A DNA stretch of 35,043 bases, taken from NCBI GenBank assembly GCA_021432655.1, contig MU271276.1:74915-109957 (forward strand), in the 5' to 3' direction. The position numbers and the translations under genes are program-made. How positions within the stretch are numbered: the stretch's first letter is position 1; each line of letters starts with the position of its first letter. Source of the stretch: Atractiella rhizophila. Its lineage: Eukaryota. Shown here in pieces: positions 12,251 through 35,043 of the stretch. Below the pieces are notes generated by a model. It was not told the DNA's origin. It did not search any database and saw only the letters and a program-made list of their open reading frames with translations.

Positions 12251-14778
12251 GATTTTTTGGTGATTTAGGATAGTCTCTCCTGTAGTGTCGCAATCAGCTC
12301 TCACTCAATGCAAGTAAATCAGCACATCATTCCTCCATGAGATCTGGCAACGCTACTCCATCCTATTTTTTTCGAGTTCCCCATCGCCTCTAATCATGAT
12401 ATGGGAATAGCAGCAAGAGCGCAAGAGCGAGACTCCTCGGCGTCCTTTTGTAAGCGTGAACTGCAAGTATACCTCAAGGTCATTTGAGGGAAGGAAGAAA
12501 CGTAGCATCAAGAACAGTCTATCAATTCACAGTCGGGATCAAAAATACAAGGAAAGCGAAAGTTCCAGCTGCCACCTAACGTCTCCTCTTTTTGGCCTCA
12601 TTCGGGTTCTTCCTCCCATACCCAACGACAGGCATTCCAGCGGTCGAATTCCACTTCTTCTCCCCTCCAAAGACCCACTCTGTTTCATCTAGATCACCCC
12701 TATCGCGTGCCTTCTCCTCTTTCTTCTTCCGTATATTCTCCTTTTTCACTCCCCGTTGAAACTCCTTCTGATCTTCTCGGAGGATGATGTTCTCGGCTCT
12801 TCCACCTTTGGGAGTAGGAAGTGAGTATTGAATACCACGGAGGCGATATTGATAGTTCCGCTTGAGATGGAGGACGTATCCCTGGGGATGCTTGGGAGAG
12901 GGAGTGACGTAGGTGATGGATGTGCGGAGCAGAGTGTTACCTCCACACGATGGGCAGAAGACCTTGGTCGTCTCTTTGGTGATTCTATCGGTCTATCAGA
13001 ATGCGTCTTCCACAACGAATCTAGATAGGACGAACTTGAAACAGCCATGACACCGCAACACCCACGTCCTAATATCCTTGATCCTCTTCCCCCCGACGCC
13101 GATCACATTCAACCCCAGCTGCAATGCAACATTCTGTACCGCAGTATCTCCTGTCATGATTGCCACATCAAAAGACTCCACCTCCGCCGATTCAGCTCCC
13201 CCTTTCCTCTTTTTGTCTAGGGAATGATCCTTTGAATCAACGTTTCCGGGTGTTATCCAGCCTTCTGAGTCGTCAGAATCGTCTGAAAGGTCACTTTCTT
13301 CTTCTGGCTCTTCAGAGTCGCTCTCTGCTGTGATGTTGGAGGGGTCTTCCGCCGCAGAAAGAGCGGTTGCAGTAGATGGAGGCTCATGCGAGGATGTAAG
13401 TCCCATGGAACTGAATTGTTCGGAGAGCCCATCTTCTGGAGCGTCCAACCGAGTATATGGCGATGGCAGCGCATTCTGACCAACGGTTTCCGGTGGGATA
13501 GATTGTGTCGCTTCAGATTTTTTGGTGATTTAGGATAGTCTCTCCTGTAGTGTCGCAATCAGCTCTCACTCAATGCAAGTAAATCAGCACATCATTCCTC
13601 CATGAGATCTAGCAACACTACTCCATCCCATTCTTTTCGAGACAAGGTTCCCATCTCTCTTAATCATGATGTGGGAATAACAGCAGCAAGAGCGAGACTC
13701 TTCGCGTCCTTTGTTGGAAGCATGAACCGCAAATATACCTTAAGGCCATTGGACGGAAGGAAAAGCGTAGCATCAAGAACAGTCTATCAATTCACAGTCG
13801 GAATCAAAATACAAGGAAAGCGAAAGTTCAAACTGCCACCTAACGTCTCCTCTTTTTGGCCTCATTCGGGTTCTTCCTGCCATATCCAACGACAGGCATC
13901 CCAGCGGTCGAATTCCACTTCTTCTCCCCTCCGAAGACCCACTCCGTTTCATCTAAATCACCCCTATCCCGTGCCTTCTCCTCTTTCTTCTTCCGTATAT
14001 TCTCCTTCTTTACTCCGCGTTGAAACTCCTTCTGATCTTCTCGGAGGATGATGTTCTCGGCTCTTCCACCTTTGGGGGTGGGGAGCGAGTATTGAATACC
14101 ACGTAGGCGATATTGATAATTCCGCTTGAGATGGAGGACATATCCCTGGGGATTCTTGGGAGAGGGAGTGACGTAGGTGATGGATGTGCGGAGCAGCGTG
14201 TTACCTCCACAAGATGAGCAGAAGACCTTGGTCGTCTCTTTGGTGATTCTATCGGTCCATCAGAATGCGCCTTCCACAACGAATCTAGATAAGACGAACT
14301 TGAAGCAGCCATGACACCGCAACACCCACGTCCTAATATCCTTGATCCTCTTCCCCCCGACGCCAATCACATTCAATCCCAGCTGCAATGCAACATTCTG
14401 TACCGCGGTATCTCCTGTCATGATTGCCACATCAAAAGACTCCACCTCCGCCGATTCAGCTCCCCCTTTCCTCTTTTTGTCCAAGGAATGATCTTTGGAA
14501 TCAACGTTTCCGGGTGTTATCCAGCCTTCTGAGTCGTCAGAATCGTCTGAAAGGTCGCTTTCTTCTTCTGGCTCTTCAGAGTCGTCCTCTGTTGTGATGG
14601 TGGAGGGGTCTTCAGCTGCAGAAGGTGCGGTTGCAGTAGATGAAGGCTCATTCGAGGATGTAAGTCCCATGGAACTGAATTGGTCGGAGAGCCCATCTTC
14701 TGGAGCGTCCAACCGAGTATTTGGTGACGGAAGAGCATTCTGACCAACGGTTGCCGGTGGGGTAGATTGGGTTGCTTC
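12251..14778. repeat. Direct tandem duplication of ~1.26 kb (copy A 12251-13514, copy B 13516-14778)
   Basis: Both copies start with an identical 95 nt (GATTTTTTGGTGATTTAGG...GAGATCT), then align colinearly at roughly 90% identity (estimated by eye). Confidence 0.97.
12576..13514 (-). pseudogene. NOB1: 5'-truncated duplicate of NOB1: acidic linker, C-terminal part of PIN, zinc ribbon and C-terminus; frame still open
   Basis: SEGWITPGNV, MTGDTAVQNVALQLGL, RCHGCFK, retained intron, FCPSCGGNTL, ILREDQKEF, GRKNPNEAKKRRR*. Lacks the N-terminal PIN (LVLDTSA) exon and the promoter. Confidence 0.8.
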
Positions 14779-15260
14779 TCCTTTTTCTGGTGCAACAGAC
14801 GAGGAAGGAGCCGTATCCGAAATAGCTTCTGCCTTAGCTGGTTCATCTTGTAATATCGGTGCTGCACTTTTAAGAGTCTTTTCAAGCTCATTTGACACAG
14901 TGACTAGGAGAGCAAGGATCCTCAAATCCGTGCGCGAAAGTGAGACGGTATCACCTGTGCGCTTCGCCGTCTCCGTGACTTTCTTTCCCATTTTCAATTC
15001 TCTCTAGTACAGCCTGTCTAAAACAAAAACGCACCTTTCGTATATGCATCTGCGCTCGGCTCCTTCACTACAATGTTGATACCAAGCAGCTCCAATCGCT
15101 CCAGAAGCTCTCTTGACGCTTTGTCTCGCACTTCATCGAGGACTGCTTGGATGGTAAAGAACTTGGTCGCGCCAGTGGCTTGCAGCGTGCTGATGGGGGA
15201 GGAAGACGAAAGGAGGGCAGAAGTATCGAGCACCAGAGTTTCTACCTTTGGAACTGGCAT
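13840..15260 (-). CDS. NOB1: Nob1, 20S pre-rRNA D-site endonuclease (PIN domain + Zn ribbon)
   Basis: LVLDTSALL, TIQAVLDEVRDKASR, AKRTGDTVSLSRTDLRILAL, GWITP, MTGDTAVQNV, WVLRCHGCFK..FCSSCGGNTL, C-terminal GYGRKNPNEAKKRRR*. Two introns. Confidence 0.95.
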
Positions 15261-29144: not shown

Positions 29145-32100
29145 CTACTTATTCTGCGCTGGTGGCGGCGCCACAGCAAGCCTCGCCCAAAACATGGATT
29201 CTTTCAGCCTCACAATCTCTCCATAACACCTTTGTTCCCAGCCTGGAGACGGCCCGTTGCCGTTCGAAGGAGCTCCCTTCTCCGTTGTCGTCGTCAACAC
29301 TGAGGCAGCGCTGCTGCTGTTACGATCGATTGTGGGACGAATGGTACTCGCGACCGAGGGATTTTGAATGTGTCGACGCGGCGGCGGACGGGGAGGGGTT
29401 GCCACTGTGACTTGTTTTGGTGGAGCACTAGTAGCTTCTTGAGAGGGAGAGTCCGAGTCAGATTTAGATGGAGTGGATGATGGCGGTGGGGGAACAGTAC
29501 GACGAGCAGCAGAGCGCCTGGGCACAGGAGGTGGCGCGGACGGAGTCGAGGTACCACTGCTTAGCTGAGAGGGGGATCCAGTCTCCTTTTCGCTGGCACT
29601 TGAATCCATAGATAGACGTGGAGGCGCTTCCTCTTCCTTTGCTTCTTCAGTTTTCTCCTCCGCTTTTTCTGTCGCGACTTCTTCCTTCTTCTCCTCCACT
29701 TTGACTTCATCCTTCCGCTCCTCTCCTAACTTAACCTCATCATTCTTTTCTTCCACCTTGACTTCAGCTACCTTCTCCTCTTTCACTTCATCCTTCTTGA
29801 CATCTGCCTCCTTCTCGATTTCATTCTCCTTCTTTGCCTCCGCAACCTCTGGCTCTGCACTCTCTCCCTTCTTCTCTCCCTCCTGAAGCTTCGCATTGTC
29901 TTCCTCGGAAGTTGGCAGGGTTTTCTTCTCGTCCACTGCCACAGGCTCATTCTTCGCCACTTCCACCCCATTCACACCCTCCTCCCGCTTTTCCTTCTCC
30001 GCATCACTCTCCGCCTTCTTCTCCTCTTCCTCATCCACAACCATAGCAGTCCCATTCGGTTTCGGAGTCGTGACCTCCTCTCCCTTCTCTCCATCCGATT
30101 TTTCACTCGGGAGAGGAAGATGATCAATCGAACTCGACTTTGTCTTTGCCAACAGTGCCGCTCGAACATCCCTTTCCCTCGCCCCAACATTAGCGGCGGG
30201 TCCAGTGCTCACAGTCCTTCTATACGAGTTCAGAGCCGCTCTCCTGCCCTCAATCGACGGTCTACTCTTATGCGTCGGTCGCGTGAAGCTCGGGTTCGTG
30301 AGCAGAGGAGGAGGGGGAGGGGAAGCGCCGACGAAGTTGTATTCCTCGAGCAGGAGGCCGCGTTGAAGCGAGCGAACGTACCCCCAGAACTCGCATACAG
30401 CCCTCAGACGCCTCAGACAGTATGTAGGACAGAGCGTGTATTTGGCGGTTGACGAGTCGACGCGGAAAAAGTATATTTGTGAGTTCGGATTCGTCGAGGA
30501 GGCAGATCCGAGTGGGAGAGAGGAGGTAGAAGGGAACTGGAATGTTCCATCCATATCCTTAGGAGACGGGGCTCCAGAGGCAGAGGAGACAGAGGAGGTG
30601 CTGTCCTTCTTCGAGCGGGTGAACGACCAGGTAGAAGAAATCATCTTCTTGACCTGTTTTTGAGCCACCTCCGCCGGCGTCTCCACCTCTTGTCCGGGAG
30701 CAAACCACCTCTCCAATCCCGTTCCACACATCGAGCAACTAGCCGAAGGGAGCGTTCCATGCGCGGGCTCAATGACTAACTGTCCTTCCAAAACGGCAGT
30801 CGCGATCTGTCTGCGCGAGAGCCAGTTGAGACCAGGAGCGAATTCGAGGCGAAGAGACGGGTCCGAATCCTCCTCTATTGCTCTCTTTACGAACGGTTGG
30901 CCCGTATGTTGTGAGAGGGGCAGTAGGGGTGCGAGCGCCTCTTTGGGGTCCGGAGGAGGGCCAGGAGAAGGAGGTGCCGCATAGTACATCCCGCCAACTT
31001 GCATGCCGGTGCCATGGTGCGAGGGTGGGTGAAGTGCGACGTATCGCGAACGCTTGAGATGTGTTGTGAACGAGAGGAACTCATGGTAGGGCACGACGTC
31101 GATTTGGATCCCAGGGAAGGGATGGATGGATGAAGAGGGAGAAAATGCGATGATGGAGGAGTTCATGAGGTTAGGAGGTGGGAGAGGGATGGTGGAGACG
31201 GAAGAACGGGATCGATGCAGGGATTCCGTCGGTACGAGAGGGAGTGCAGCGAGTTCGAAATCGATCGGTATATCCAACTCCTCGAACCTCCTCTTCATGT
31301 TCTCATTCTCTCCTTCCAGAACCTTTGCGCGCTCCACTTCTTCCGTCAAGCTTCCCCTCAACGCATCGAGGACCCCCTGCATATCCTGCACCGACTCCTC
31401 CAAAGAAGCCATCTTGGCTTCCGCCTGCGCACGGACCATTCGTTCCGACGCGACCATCTTGTTCGCTTCCATGAAGAGGGACGAAGAAAGCTGGTCGAGT
31501 TCACCTTCGATCGTAGCCTTCGCAGCCTCAGCAGACGTGCGCTGCTCCGTCTCCTTCAGAATTTTATCCATCAAGCTCGTGAGTTCGGATTGAACGTGTC
31601 TCTGCATCCATGACCCAATTCACCATAAACGTTCCACTCGCACTAACAATCCCAAAGAAAGCGAAAGTGACATACACGCTCGACGAAAGTACCACCCTCT
31701 AAAGCCGCATTCCACTCCTGCTTCTCCTTCTCCAAACCCGCCACTCTCTTCTTGAGCACTCTCGCATGTTCCTGTTCATCCTCTAAATCTGAAATCTTGT
31801 GAAAACTCGACACAAGCTTCGAATTGAGGGTGTGGACCTGAGACGTGAGGTCGGTGATTTGGCTTCTGAGCGAAGTAATTAATGAAAAGGTGGGAGATTC
31901 GGGGTCGTTCTCGTCGTGGTCGTGGTCATGGTCATGATGTTCGTGTGAGGACGAAGGGGTGGAGCGAGAACTTTCGCGGATACCACGTGTGGATGACGAA
32001 CGGGAGTGGGAAGGAAACGAGGGAGGCGGAGGGAGAAGAGGGAGAGGGCTCTGGCTGCCTTATCGTCTTTGGCGAGCCGGATGCTTCTTTTCACACATGC

Positions 32101-33555: not shown

Positions 33556-33564
33556 TATATAAAA
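33556..33564 (+). promoter_or_regulatory. TATA box of the P450nor gene
   Basis: TATATAAAA, about 90 nt upstream of ATG 33653. Confidence 0.65.
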
Positions 33565-33652
33565 GGTGGGATGGAGGGGACTGGTAGACATGAAATTCCC
33601 AACAGCTCATTCGCCCAGCTCTAAACATCTAGCCTTCACCTTCAAAAAAGCC

Positions 33653-35043
33653 ATGTCGACTGCCACTGAATCAGGTACGCCGTACCCCTTACCCTGGCTT
33701 TGGGTCTAATTAAAGCGGAATGTAGCTCCGCCTCGATTCCCCTTCTCTCGTCCCTCTGCTGCCATCCCTCCCCTCGAGTATGCGCAGCTGCGAAAGACTG
33801 CTCCAGTCTCAAAAGTCACTTTGTTCGATGGATCTCACGCCTGGTTGGTCGTCAAATACAAGGACATCTGCTCCGTCTTGACGGATGACAGACTTTCAAA
33901 GGTCCCTCTTGATTCTCCTTGTTACATCATCATTTTGAGCTCACTTTACGCGATATGAACAGCAAAGGAACCGACCTGGTTTCCCGGAGCTTTCTGCAGG
34001 AGGGAAGGCGGCAGCCAAGAATAAGGCACGTCTACTTCTTTCTATTCGTTCAACTCAGGACATGCTAATGCTAACTTTTCGGTGCCCAGCCCACTTTTGT
34101 GGACATGGACCCTCCCCAACATGGGCAACAGAGGGGAATGGTTGCTCCCCTTTTCACGCCTGAGCAAGCGCAACTCGGCAGGCCACATATTCAGAAGACT
34201 TGCGACGAGTTGATCGACGAGATGGTAAAGGAAGGATGCGGGAACGGCCTCGATATCATTCCTCGATTAGCCTTGAAGCTTCCTTCTTATGTGAGTTACC
34301 ATTGGTGCACTTAAATGCGATATTATGCTGATTCCTTATGCTGGACAGATCATTTATGGCATTCTTGGAGTCCCTTTCAAGGATCTCGAGTACTTGACGC
34401 AACAAAATGCAATTCGGAGCAATGGGAGTGGAACTGCGGCCGAGGCTCAAGCTGCTAACCAGTCAGTTGGTTCAAGAGTTGCGAACAAGTTACTTATGAT
34501 TCCACTCTAGAGAACTGCTGGATTACCTCGCGAATTTAGTGGAGGTGAAAAAAGCAGAACCAGGCCACGACCTCATTAGCGAGCTCATCGAGAAACAAGT
34601 GCGTAATCTTTCACAGTTTAATTCCCAGTTCTTACGGCCGAAATAGTTGAACCATGGGCACCTTGAAAAATCCGATGTTGTTCAGCTTGCTTTCCTAATG
34701 CTAGTCGCTGGAAATGCCACAATGGCGAGTAGTTTTGCTTCCGTGGCCCAATGTGCACTTACGTCCACATATTAGGTCAACATGATCGCCCTTGTGAGGA
34801 CCCCTGCTTACCTCTGTTACGAGTCCAGACTGATGCATTATTCAGGGAATTGTCACCCTCCTCCAACACCCTGATCAGCTCGCCGCTCTCAAGAAAGACC
34901 CCTCTCTCGCAAAAGACTTCGTGGAAGAACTTTGTCGCTACCATACTGGTTCGGCTCTTGCAACGAAGCGTGTAGCAAAGGAAGACATTGTTCTAAATGG
35001 AGTGGTACGCGTCTACTTCCTATTCCTCTCCAATTATTCATCA
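33653..35043 (+). CDS. CYP55: Cytochrome P450nor (CYP55), soluble fungal nitric oxide reductase; 3' end beyond the window; possible upstream in-frame start at 33590
   Basis: Exons 33653-33674, 33726-33901, 33963-34025, 34090-34290, 34349-34461, 34511-34598, 34647-34724, 34776-34793, 34846-35004 give [151 protein letters not shown]. This is colinear with Fusarium oxysporum CYP55A1 as I recall it. Confidence 0.95.

Follow-up and report, generated by a model that had tools for sequence, protein, structure and literature searches.

The stretch of DNA analysed here (the window; 35,043 nucleotides, G000:C97:74915-109957, Atractiella rhizophila) ends in a gene of the fungal nitric oxide reductase family (P450nor, CYP55), which is cut by the 3' edge of the window because this edge coincides with the contig end (Table 1). 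Nine exons on the forward strand (33653-35004) splice in frame to 306 amino acids, identical letter for letter to the NCBI entry "cytochrome P450, partial [Atractiella rhizophila]" (P0001). This agrees with the original prediction of nine exons with CYP55 motifs, as the spliced protein carries all six motifs named there (FPFSR at residue 12, GFPELSA at 72, PTFVDMDPP at 88, and three more at 169, 240 and 278), and the predicted absence of an N-terminal membrane helix is confirmed by a maximal 19-residue Kyte-Doolittle mean of 0.75 in the first 60 residues. The complete model comprises 11 exons encoding 406 amino acids free of internal stops, and ten introns of 48-64 nt each, eight of the GT-AG and two of the GC-AG type; all ten were recovered by a separate spliced aligner used as a control. 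In a protein search one locus alone in the genome matched the CYP55 query, indicating a single copy. A weak additional match on contig C724 (35%, E 2.4e-5) was taken for the heme region of an unrelated P450.

Table 1. Features of the CYP55 locus of A. rhizophila. Positions are those of the window, except for exons 10 and 11, which lie on contig C1493; correspondences are to Fusarium P450nor residues.
Feature	Position	Strand	Evidence or remark
SEC2-like GDP/GTP exchange factor, nearest identified upstream neighbour, divergent	29148..31619	-	Pfam PF06428, 1.1e-13
TATA-like box (putative function)	33556..33564	+	TATATAAAA at 33556
Candidate 21-aa in-frame N-terminal extension	33590..33652	+	ATG at 33590, stop-free up to 33653
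CYP55 exon 1, start codon	33653..33674	+	RNA joint 33672/33724, GT..AG at +2
CYP55 exon 2, FPFSR; last residue Lys66 = Lys62	33726..33901	+	Splice model, RNA contigs, alignment
CYP55 exon 3, B' helix region; Arg68, Glu75, Ser77, Gly79, Lys81 = 64, 71, 73, 75, 77	33963..34025	+	Splice model, RNA contigs, alignment
Intron 3, GC-AG	34026..34089	+	Skipped in X4 and X6 RNA contigs; position in 0/44 other fungal CYP55 loci
CYP55 exon 4, PTFVDMDPP; Asp92 = Asp88	34090..34290	+	Splice model, alignment
CYP55 exon 5, Arg177 = Arg174	34349..34461	+	Splice model, alignment, RNA contigs
CYP55 exon 6	34511..34598	+	Splice model, RNA contigs
CYP55 exon 7, I helix AGNAT, Ala242-Thr246 = 239-243	34647..34724	+	Splice model, alignment, RNA contigs
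Intron 7, GC-AG	34725..34775	+	Position in 0/40 other fungal CYP55 loci
CYP55 exon 8, 18-nt micro-exon	34776..34793	+	Letters between flanking exons in X6 and X19 RNA contigs
CYP55 exon 9, EELCR; Ser289, Lys294, Arg295 = 286, 291, 292	34846..35004	+	Splice model, alignment, RNA contigs
Intron 9, severed by contig end	35005..35043	+	Gene resumes on G000:C1493
CYP55 exon 10, heme Cys355	C1493 2406-2217	-	88-nt overlap, RNA contigs
CYP55 exon 11, Asp396 and stop	C1493 2167-2055	-	88-nt overlap

The last two exons were found on contig C1493, which shares an exact 88-nt overlap with the end of the window. The heme cysteine motif, which the original prediction expected downstream of the sequence then in view, is present there as FGYGQHEC (FxxGxHxC; residues 348-355), and exon 10 matches Fusarium oxysporum P450nor with an E-value of 1e-16. 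A second version of the 3' end is located on contigs C1266 and C1391. The two versions differ at five of 267 coding nucleotides, four of the differences being silent and one exchanging the stop codon for another stop, so that the 88 residues are unchanged; both versions run on into contig C596. They are presumably two alleles under purifying selection. C1266 and C1391 were also considered as paralogues; this was rejected, as both start within exon 10 and continue to one and the same contig downstream, and they are 99.8% identical to each other. The 3' flanks of C1493 (L003) and C1266 (L014) are strongly unlike, with approximately 2.0 and 2.8 kb, respectively, before C596, patches of 73-84% identity and no coding frame recognisable by eye. 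At its junction with C596-like sequence C1266 contains a 96-nt direct repeat (L014:3066-3257), which, together with the near-identity to C1391 (L013), points to redundant or stitched contigs in the assembly.

Four of the 24 listed sequencing runs were used: the DNA run X1; X4 and X6, which we took to be RNA; and X19, recorded as a root metatranscriptome. Contigs of X4, X6 and X19, which come from three studies, skip the introns at the predicted joints, six of which were seen directly in the X4 contigs. At 35004 all three sets leave the window sequence and continue with the first letters of exon 10 as found on C1493 (29 of 30 letters agree for X4 and X19, compared by eye), and this crossing supports the join over the contig break. 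In these three studies the transcripts are 95% to more than 99% identical to the gene; as assembled contigs, the RNA data are uninformative on level, strand or start. In the DNA run the depth is even, about 300, over the gene and its 5' flank, with two haplotype pieces; X1 may be the source of the assembly and hence not independent of it.

To describe the surroundings of the gene, Pfam was run on 31 ORF pieces taken from the window and, on the contig that follows downstream, from the initial 9 kb (the range used in PMC6161760 is 50 kb). Twenty three pieces had a match, mostly to housekeeping families: a short-chain dehydrogenase, a subtilase, YTH, NOB1, SMC, F-box/SEC10, COQ5 and SEC2 upstream, and KNR4, GNAT, an adenylate/UMP kinase family enzyme and a GH27 alpha-galactosidase downstream. 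None of the 31 pieces matched polyketide synthase (PKS), non-ribosomal peptide synthetase (NRPS) or terpene synthase families, and the picture of housekeeping neighbours without secondary-metabolite genes thus stands for this interval. Near its start the window contains a run of 920 N (731-1650), and the long ORFs listed across 149-1990 are artefacts of this run. Positions 12251-13527 and 13516-14792 form a head-to-tail duplicate of approximately 1.28 kb (92.5% identity), with a NOB1 zinc-ribbon match in each copy; this may reflect a genuine tandem duplication, or else two haplotypes that the assembly placed one after the other.

Comparison with solved structures identified the protein as P450nor. 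The twelve best matches were Fusarium P450nor and its mutants (E about 1e-125; 7e-126 over residues 7-303 for the best one), followed by CYP105 enzymes, the best bacterial P450 having an E-value of 2.4e-60. In P450 nomenclature, membership in the CYP55A subfamily takes more than 55% identity to named CYP55A proteins. The 39 best relatives listed are 63-72% identical to the query over approximately 400 amino acids, and the highest identity, 73%, was to metagenome locus L166. In the phylogeny the query falls inside the fungal CYP55 clade, which is set apart from the algal group with support 100/99. Hence the CYP55 identity proposed originally holds; the protein lies in the CYP55 clade, its heme cysteine is in place, and the name of the identical protein assigns the gene to a basidiomycete, as predicted, excluding an ordinary ascomycete denitrifier, so that none of the three outcomes named in advance as contrary to the original prediction occurred.

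For a survey of functional residues we took, of 329 proteins, those aligning over at least 370 residues and sorted them by identity to the query into classes of 164 (at least 55%), 19 (40-55%) and 104 proteins (below 40%, presumed bacterial). Residues were numbered via Fusarium xylarioides P0100, in agreement with the PDB alignment. The query has kept the equivalents of Fusarium Lys62, Arg64, Glu71, Ser73, Lys77, Lys81, Asp88, Arg174, Ala239-Gly-Asn-Ala-Thr243, Ser286, Lys291, Arg292, His350, Cys352 and Asp393. Lys62, Arg64, Glu71, Asp88, Arg174, Lys291 and Arg292 form the basic NAD(P)H pocket and its salt bridges, and Asp393 also has a role in P450nor. Each of Lys62, Arg64, Glu71, Asp88, Arg174, Ala239-Thr243, Ser286, Arg292, Cys352 and Asp393 occurs in 162-164 of the 164 CYP55-like proteins; Asp88, Arg174, AGNAT and Ser286 are present in all of them. 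In the I helix of the query, AGNAT (with Ala239 and Thr243) replaces the acid-alcohol pair, and positions 241-242, Asn-Ala in the query, are most commonly His and Glu in the 104 distant P450s (74/104 each). Functional roles of Ala239, Thr243 and Ser286 are described in the available text of PMC4030948.

Two positions of the query deserve separate mention. Gly at position 75, a residue linked to NADPH use in P450nor, is the family norm (163 of 164); from this residue, Gly79 of the query, the enzyme would be predicted to accept both NADH and NADPH. The residue preceding the heme cysteine is Glu in the query; among the 164 relatives it is Arg in 140 and Glu in one. Since P450nor has no partner protein to bind at the proximal face, where this residue is located, the substitution is not expected to abolish activity. 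A divergent group of fungal CYP55-like proteins (P0126, P0133, P0134 and relatives, from Friedmanniomyces and Aspergillus), 41-49% identical, often has changed equivalents of Asp88, Thr243 or Asp393, and may have a function other than NO reduction.

Every sequence-level test for P450nor gave a positive result, and by these tests the gene is an intact, transcribed CYP55A whose product is very probably a working NO reductase. By analogy with the family, the ferric heme, with Cys355 as its ligand, would bind NO; the basic distal pocket (Arg68, Arg177, Lys294 and the B' helix) would take up NAD(P)H, whose hydride would go straight to the bound NO without help from a reductase; Ser289, Asp396 and Thr246 would relay protons; and a second NO would then yield N2O, a greenhouse gas, and water.

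To trace the history of the gene we compared intron positions. A metagenome scan gave 80 loci; 48 of them went through the spliced aligner, and the counts below refer to 47 genomic loci, several of which are near-duplicates. For seven of the ten introns of the query, other fungal CYP55 genes have an intron in the same phase of the same codon: 66/0 (34 of 42 loci covering the position), 154/0 (43/46), 191/2 (30/46), 221/0 (17/44), 253/0 (27/40), 306/0 (19/38) and 369/1 (31/33). A further common fungal intron, 101/2 (30/44), is missing from the query. Intron 1 (7/1) was seen in none of 12 loci, two of which have an adjacent intron at 6/1. The two GC-AG introns, at 87/0 and 247/0, are exactly the two internal introns not found in any other CYP55 locus examined (Table 1), which would fit a gain of new introns with GC donors at this locus. 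The loci with common introns group among ascomycete proteins in the tree. Because seven of ten positions are common to fungal CYP55 genes, the ancestor of the gene, as judged from its introns, was a fungal CYP55 that already had introns, and direct entry from bacteria is excluded; if its acquisition was lateral, the source would for the same reason be another fungus and not actinobacteria.

Four trees were built on chosen subsets (116, 67, 76 and 49 rows), which were thinned step by step by removing redundant species and long rows of the outgroup; the careful tree was rooted on the group with green-algal members, and three quick ones, including the 67-row tree, had a CYP105-like outgroup. Trichosporon, absent among the matches listed, is not represented, so that the characterised basidiomycete enzyme is missing from the trees. 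In all four the query lies in an ascomycete-dominated core clade (support 100/97 in the careful tree; 92, 95 and 96 in the quick trees), within a polytomy and with no close donor. In the careful tree it belongs to a subclade (96/86) excluding six Eurotiomycetes, while Collybia nuda and Mycena rebaudengoi branch first, outside the core clade, and Mycena floridula is inside it at an unstable position. A protein labelled as coming from a Pleopsidium flavum MAG (P0288) groups with those of Myrmecia and Trebouxia; it may be a photobiont sequence in the MAG or the result of an alga-fungus transfer.

The lateral acquisition suggested originally is favoured by the best tree and is probably a better account than vertical descent; neither a place for the query beyond the ascomycete clade nor monophyly of the basidiomycete copies is rejected by the AU tests. 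Moving the query to the base of the core clade, as sister to all of it, gave p 0.264, uniting it with Collybia, M. rebaudengoi and P0010 gave p 0.124, and adding M. floridula to this group gave p 0.054, the groups having been named after the trees had been seen; the best tree was 10.9-33.2 log units above the constrained ones. With a GC3 of 0.516 the gene does not stand out from eight ORFs around it (0.459-0.651), and neither GC nor GC3 shows a sign of foreign origin, which implies that any transfer is old. The probable origin, in our view, is an old transfer at the DNA level in which a filamentous ascomycete donated the gene together with its introns; two GC-AG introns would then have been gained and one ancestral intron lost.

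The main competitor, to which we give a smaller though real chance, is vertical descent from a CYP55 with about eight introns in the ancestor of Dikarya, the copies in Atractiella, Collybia and M. rebaudengoi being relics after loss in most basidiomycetes. The common introns and the host-like GC3 fit this history equally well, Collybia and M. rebaudengoi lie outside the ascomycete core, and the topologies compatible with it are those that the AU tests retain; an origin of the CYP55 clan in the ancestor of Ascomycota and Basidiomycota is put forward in the accessible part of PMC4122930. Against it, the 100/97 branch parts the query from the two early agaric copies at the cost in log units given above, and the 71-73% identity to ascomycete copies exceeds what a placement near any basidiomycete copy offers. 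Very many losses would be needed, given three other named basidiomycete proteins among the matches listed, and duplication and loss alone are judged insufficient in the portion of PMC6161760 at hand.

Direct origin from actinobacterial CYP105, ascomycete contamination or a chimeric join can together be practically dismissed: CYP105 is indeed the nearest bacterial family, and the assembly does break within the gene and has redundant contigs there, but the seven introns at ancestral fungal positions exclude direct entry, the query falls within the fungal clade, a close relative finds no bacterial genome match above 36% identity, the contig that ends in the gene is 110 kb long and annotated as A. 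rhizophila, with even depth over the gene and its 5' flank, both 3' versions rejoin C596, and near-identical transcripts exist in the three studies.

As to its role, the enzyme would most likely act in roots and soil as a stand-alone cytosolic sink for NO and, when oxygen is low, as an NADH valve, and not as one step of a complete denitrification chain or part of a secondary-metabolite cluster. A rather improbable alternative is that P450nor operates within a real denitrification route, NirK reducing nitrite to NO and P450nor reducing NO to N2O, possibly with a mitochondrial isoform started at the ATG at 33590. The 21 residues added by this ATG contain no acidic side chains and are a candidate mitochondrial presequence, and N-terminal extensions occur in 48 of 164 relatives. 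The ATG lies 26 nt past the TATA-like box and upstream of the starts of the RNA contigs (33609-33624; such contigs cannot show the true start). Because of this closeness to the TATA-like box and the position upstream of the RNA contigs, a cytosolic enzyme is more likely, and use of the ATG and the isoform are unsupported.

The genome-wide searches for the nitrogen pathway bear on the same alternative. Multicopper-oxidase and NIR_SIR domains are expected in any fungus. A nirK candidate was not found in the genome with TIGR02376 or one bacterial NirK, a weak negative as the exon-by-exon matching also missed Cu-oxidase_3 and NIR_SIR. For assimilatory nitrite reductase the equally insensitive search gave no NIR_SIR match, and E. 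coli NirB yielded two weak 27% matches to a short stretch, likewise a weak negative. Three similar molybdopterin-oxidoreductase loci were seen (G000:C150, C580 and C642), one of which looks by eye like a short gene of the sulfite-oxidase type and not like nitrate reductase, which also speaks against denitrification. According to the text of PMC6161760 that we consulted, p450nor without nirK is the common case, 48 of the 167 p450nor genomes having both genes.

Globins and flavohemoglobin were not found with the queries used in this exon-by-exon search, which is insensitive in this genome. A bolder reading, which we hold to be unlikely, builds on this: P450nor would be an ancestral Dikarya gene and not an ascomycete trait leaking to basidiomycetes, A. 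rhizophila, a dominant root endophyte of the basidiomycete subphylum that diverged first, would keep and express it in roots as its main NO-removing enzyme, since no flavohemoglobin was found, and a non-denitrifying endophyte would be an overlooked source of N2O in the root zone.

Still less credible is a service to secondary metabolism, which has been proposed for some p450nor genes and in which the enzyme would handle NO or take part in nitration during the synthesis of a natural product. Of 167 p450nor regions, PMC6161760 predicts 19 to be clusters and reports hallmark genes close to another 40, and the GNAT acetyltransferase lies a few kb downstream of the gene; the absence of PKS, NRPS and terpene synthase matches from all 31 ORF pieces argues against it.

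Among known systems the closest counterpart is Fusarium oxysporum CYP55A1 (PDB 1ROM, 1EHE, 1XQD), which the query resembles in the I-helix AGNAT, the B' helix, Ser286, Asp393, the heme cysteine and solubility. It differs in its basidiomycete host, in Gly at position 75, where the wild-type F. oxysporum enzyme has Ser, and in Glu instead of Arg before the heme cysteine; further differences are that no nirK was found in the query genome by the insensitive search and that a mitochondrial isoform is unsupported. CYP105-like proteins of actinobacteria mostly lack Asp88, Arg174, Asn241-Ala242 and Asp393, and the green-algal CYP55 proteins (Myrmecia, Trebouxia) are the sister group used as the root.

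A CYP55 gene in a basidiomycete is less exceptional than originally supposed. The other named basidiomycetes among the matches listed (17 of 17, best 120 of 514 and best 120 of 715) are two Mycena species and Collybia nuda, all three Agaricales with genome-predicted CYP55; M. floridula is 70% identical to the query. In the best trees none of these copies forms a group with the query, and two of them branch earlier; monophyly is not rejected. The characterised basidiomycete P450nor is that of Trichosporon (Tremellomycetes), which belongs to Agaricomycotina, whereas NCBI taxonomy places A. rhizophila in Basidiomycota, Pucciniomycotina, Atractiellomycetes, on the branch of the rust fungi. CYP55 is given for two Trichosporon species among 23 Tremellomycetes in the available sections of PMC6627453. 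In those of PMC6161760, p450nor is counted in 167 of 712 fungal genomes, Tremellomycetes are the basidiomycete class in the monophyly tests, and transfer from Ascomycota is proposed; PMC12773724, in the part at hand, screened for the p450nor gene and went no further. In the literature searched, which lay outside subscription journals and supplements, we found no report of p450nor or nitrous oxide for Atractiella or the higher taxa named after it, and none of CYP55 in Pucciniomycotina. The gene is thus a member of a known family in a subphylum for which no earlier report was found; it extends the range of the enzyme and is not a new kind of system.

In summary, we slightly favour, as a whole, an intact single-copy 11-exon gene for a soluble 406-residue P450nor that would serve as a stand-alone cytosolic NO sink and would be derived from an ascomycete. 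The public protein record lacks the heme cysteine because of the contig break, and surveys demanding full-length models could miss the gene. The conserved set of eight intron positions can serve as a marker distinguishing a eukaryote-to-eukaryote history from bacterial entry, and the gene provides a Pucciniomycotina data point in the debate on transfer versus loss of p450nor. According to PMC6450171, a study of Populus roots, A. rhizophila dominated in five out of eight soils. By analogy with the enzyme family the fungus would produce N2O; an active enzyme would enable this common endophytic basidiomycete to convert plant- or soil-derived NO to N2O, and the fungus might also shape NO signalling in root colonisation.
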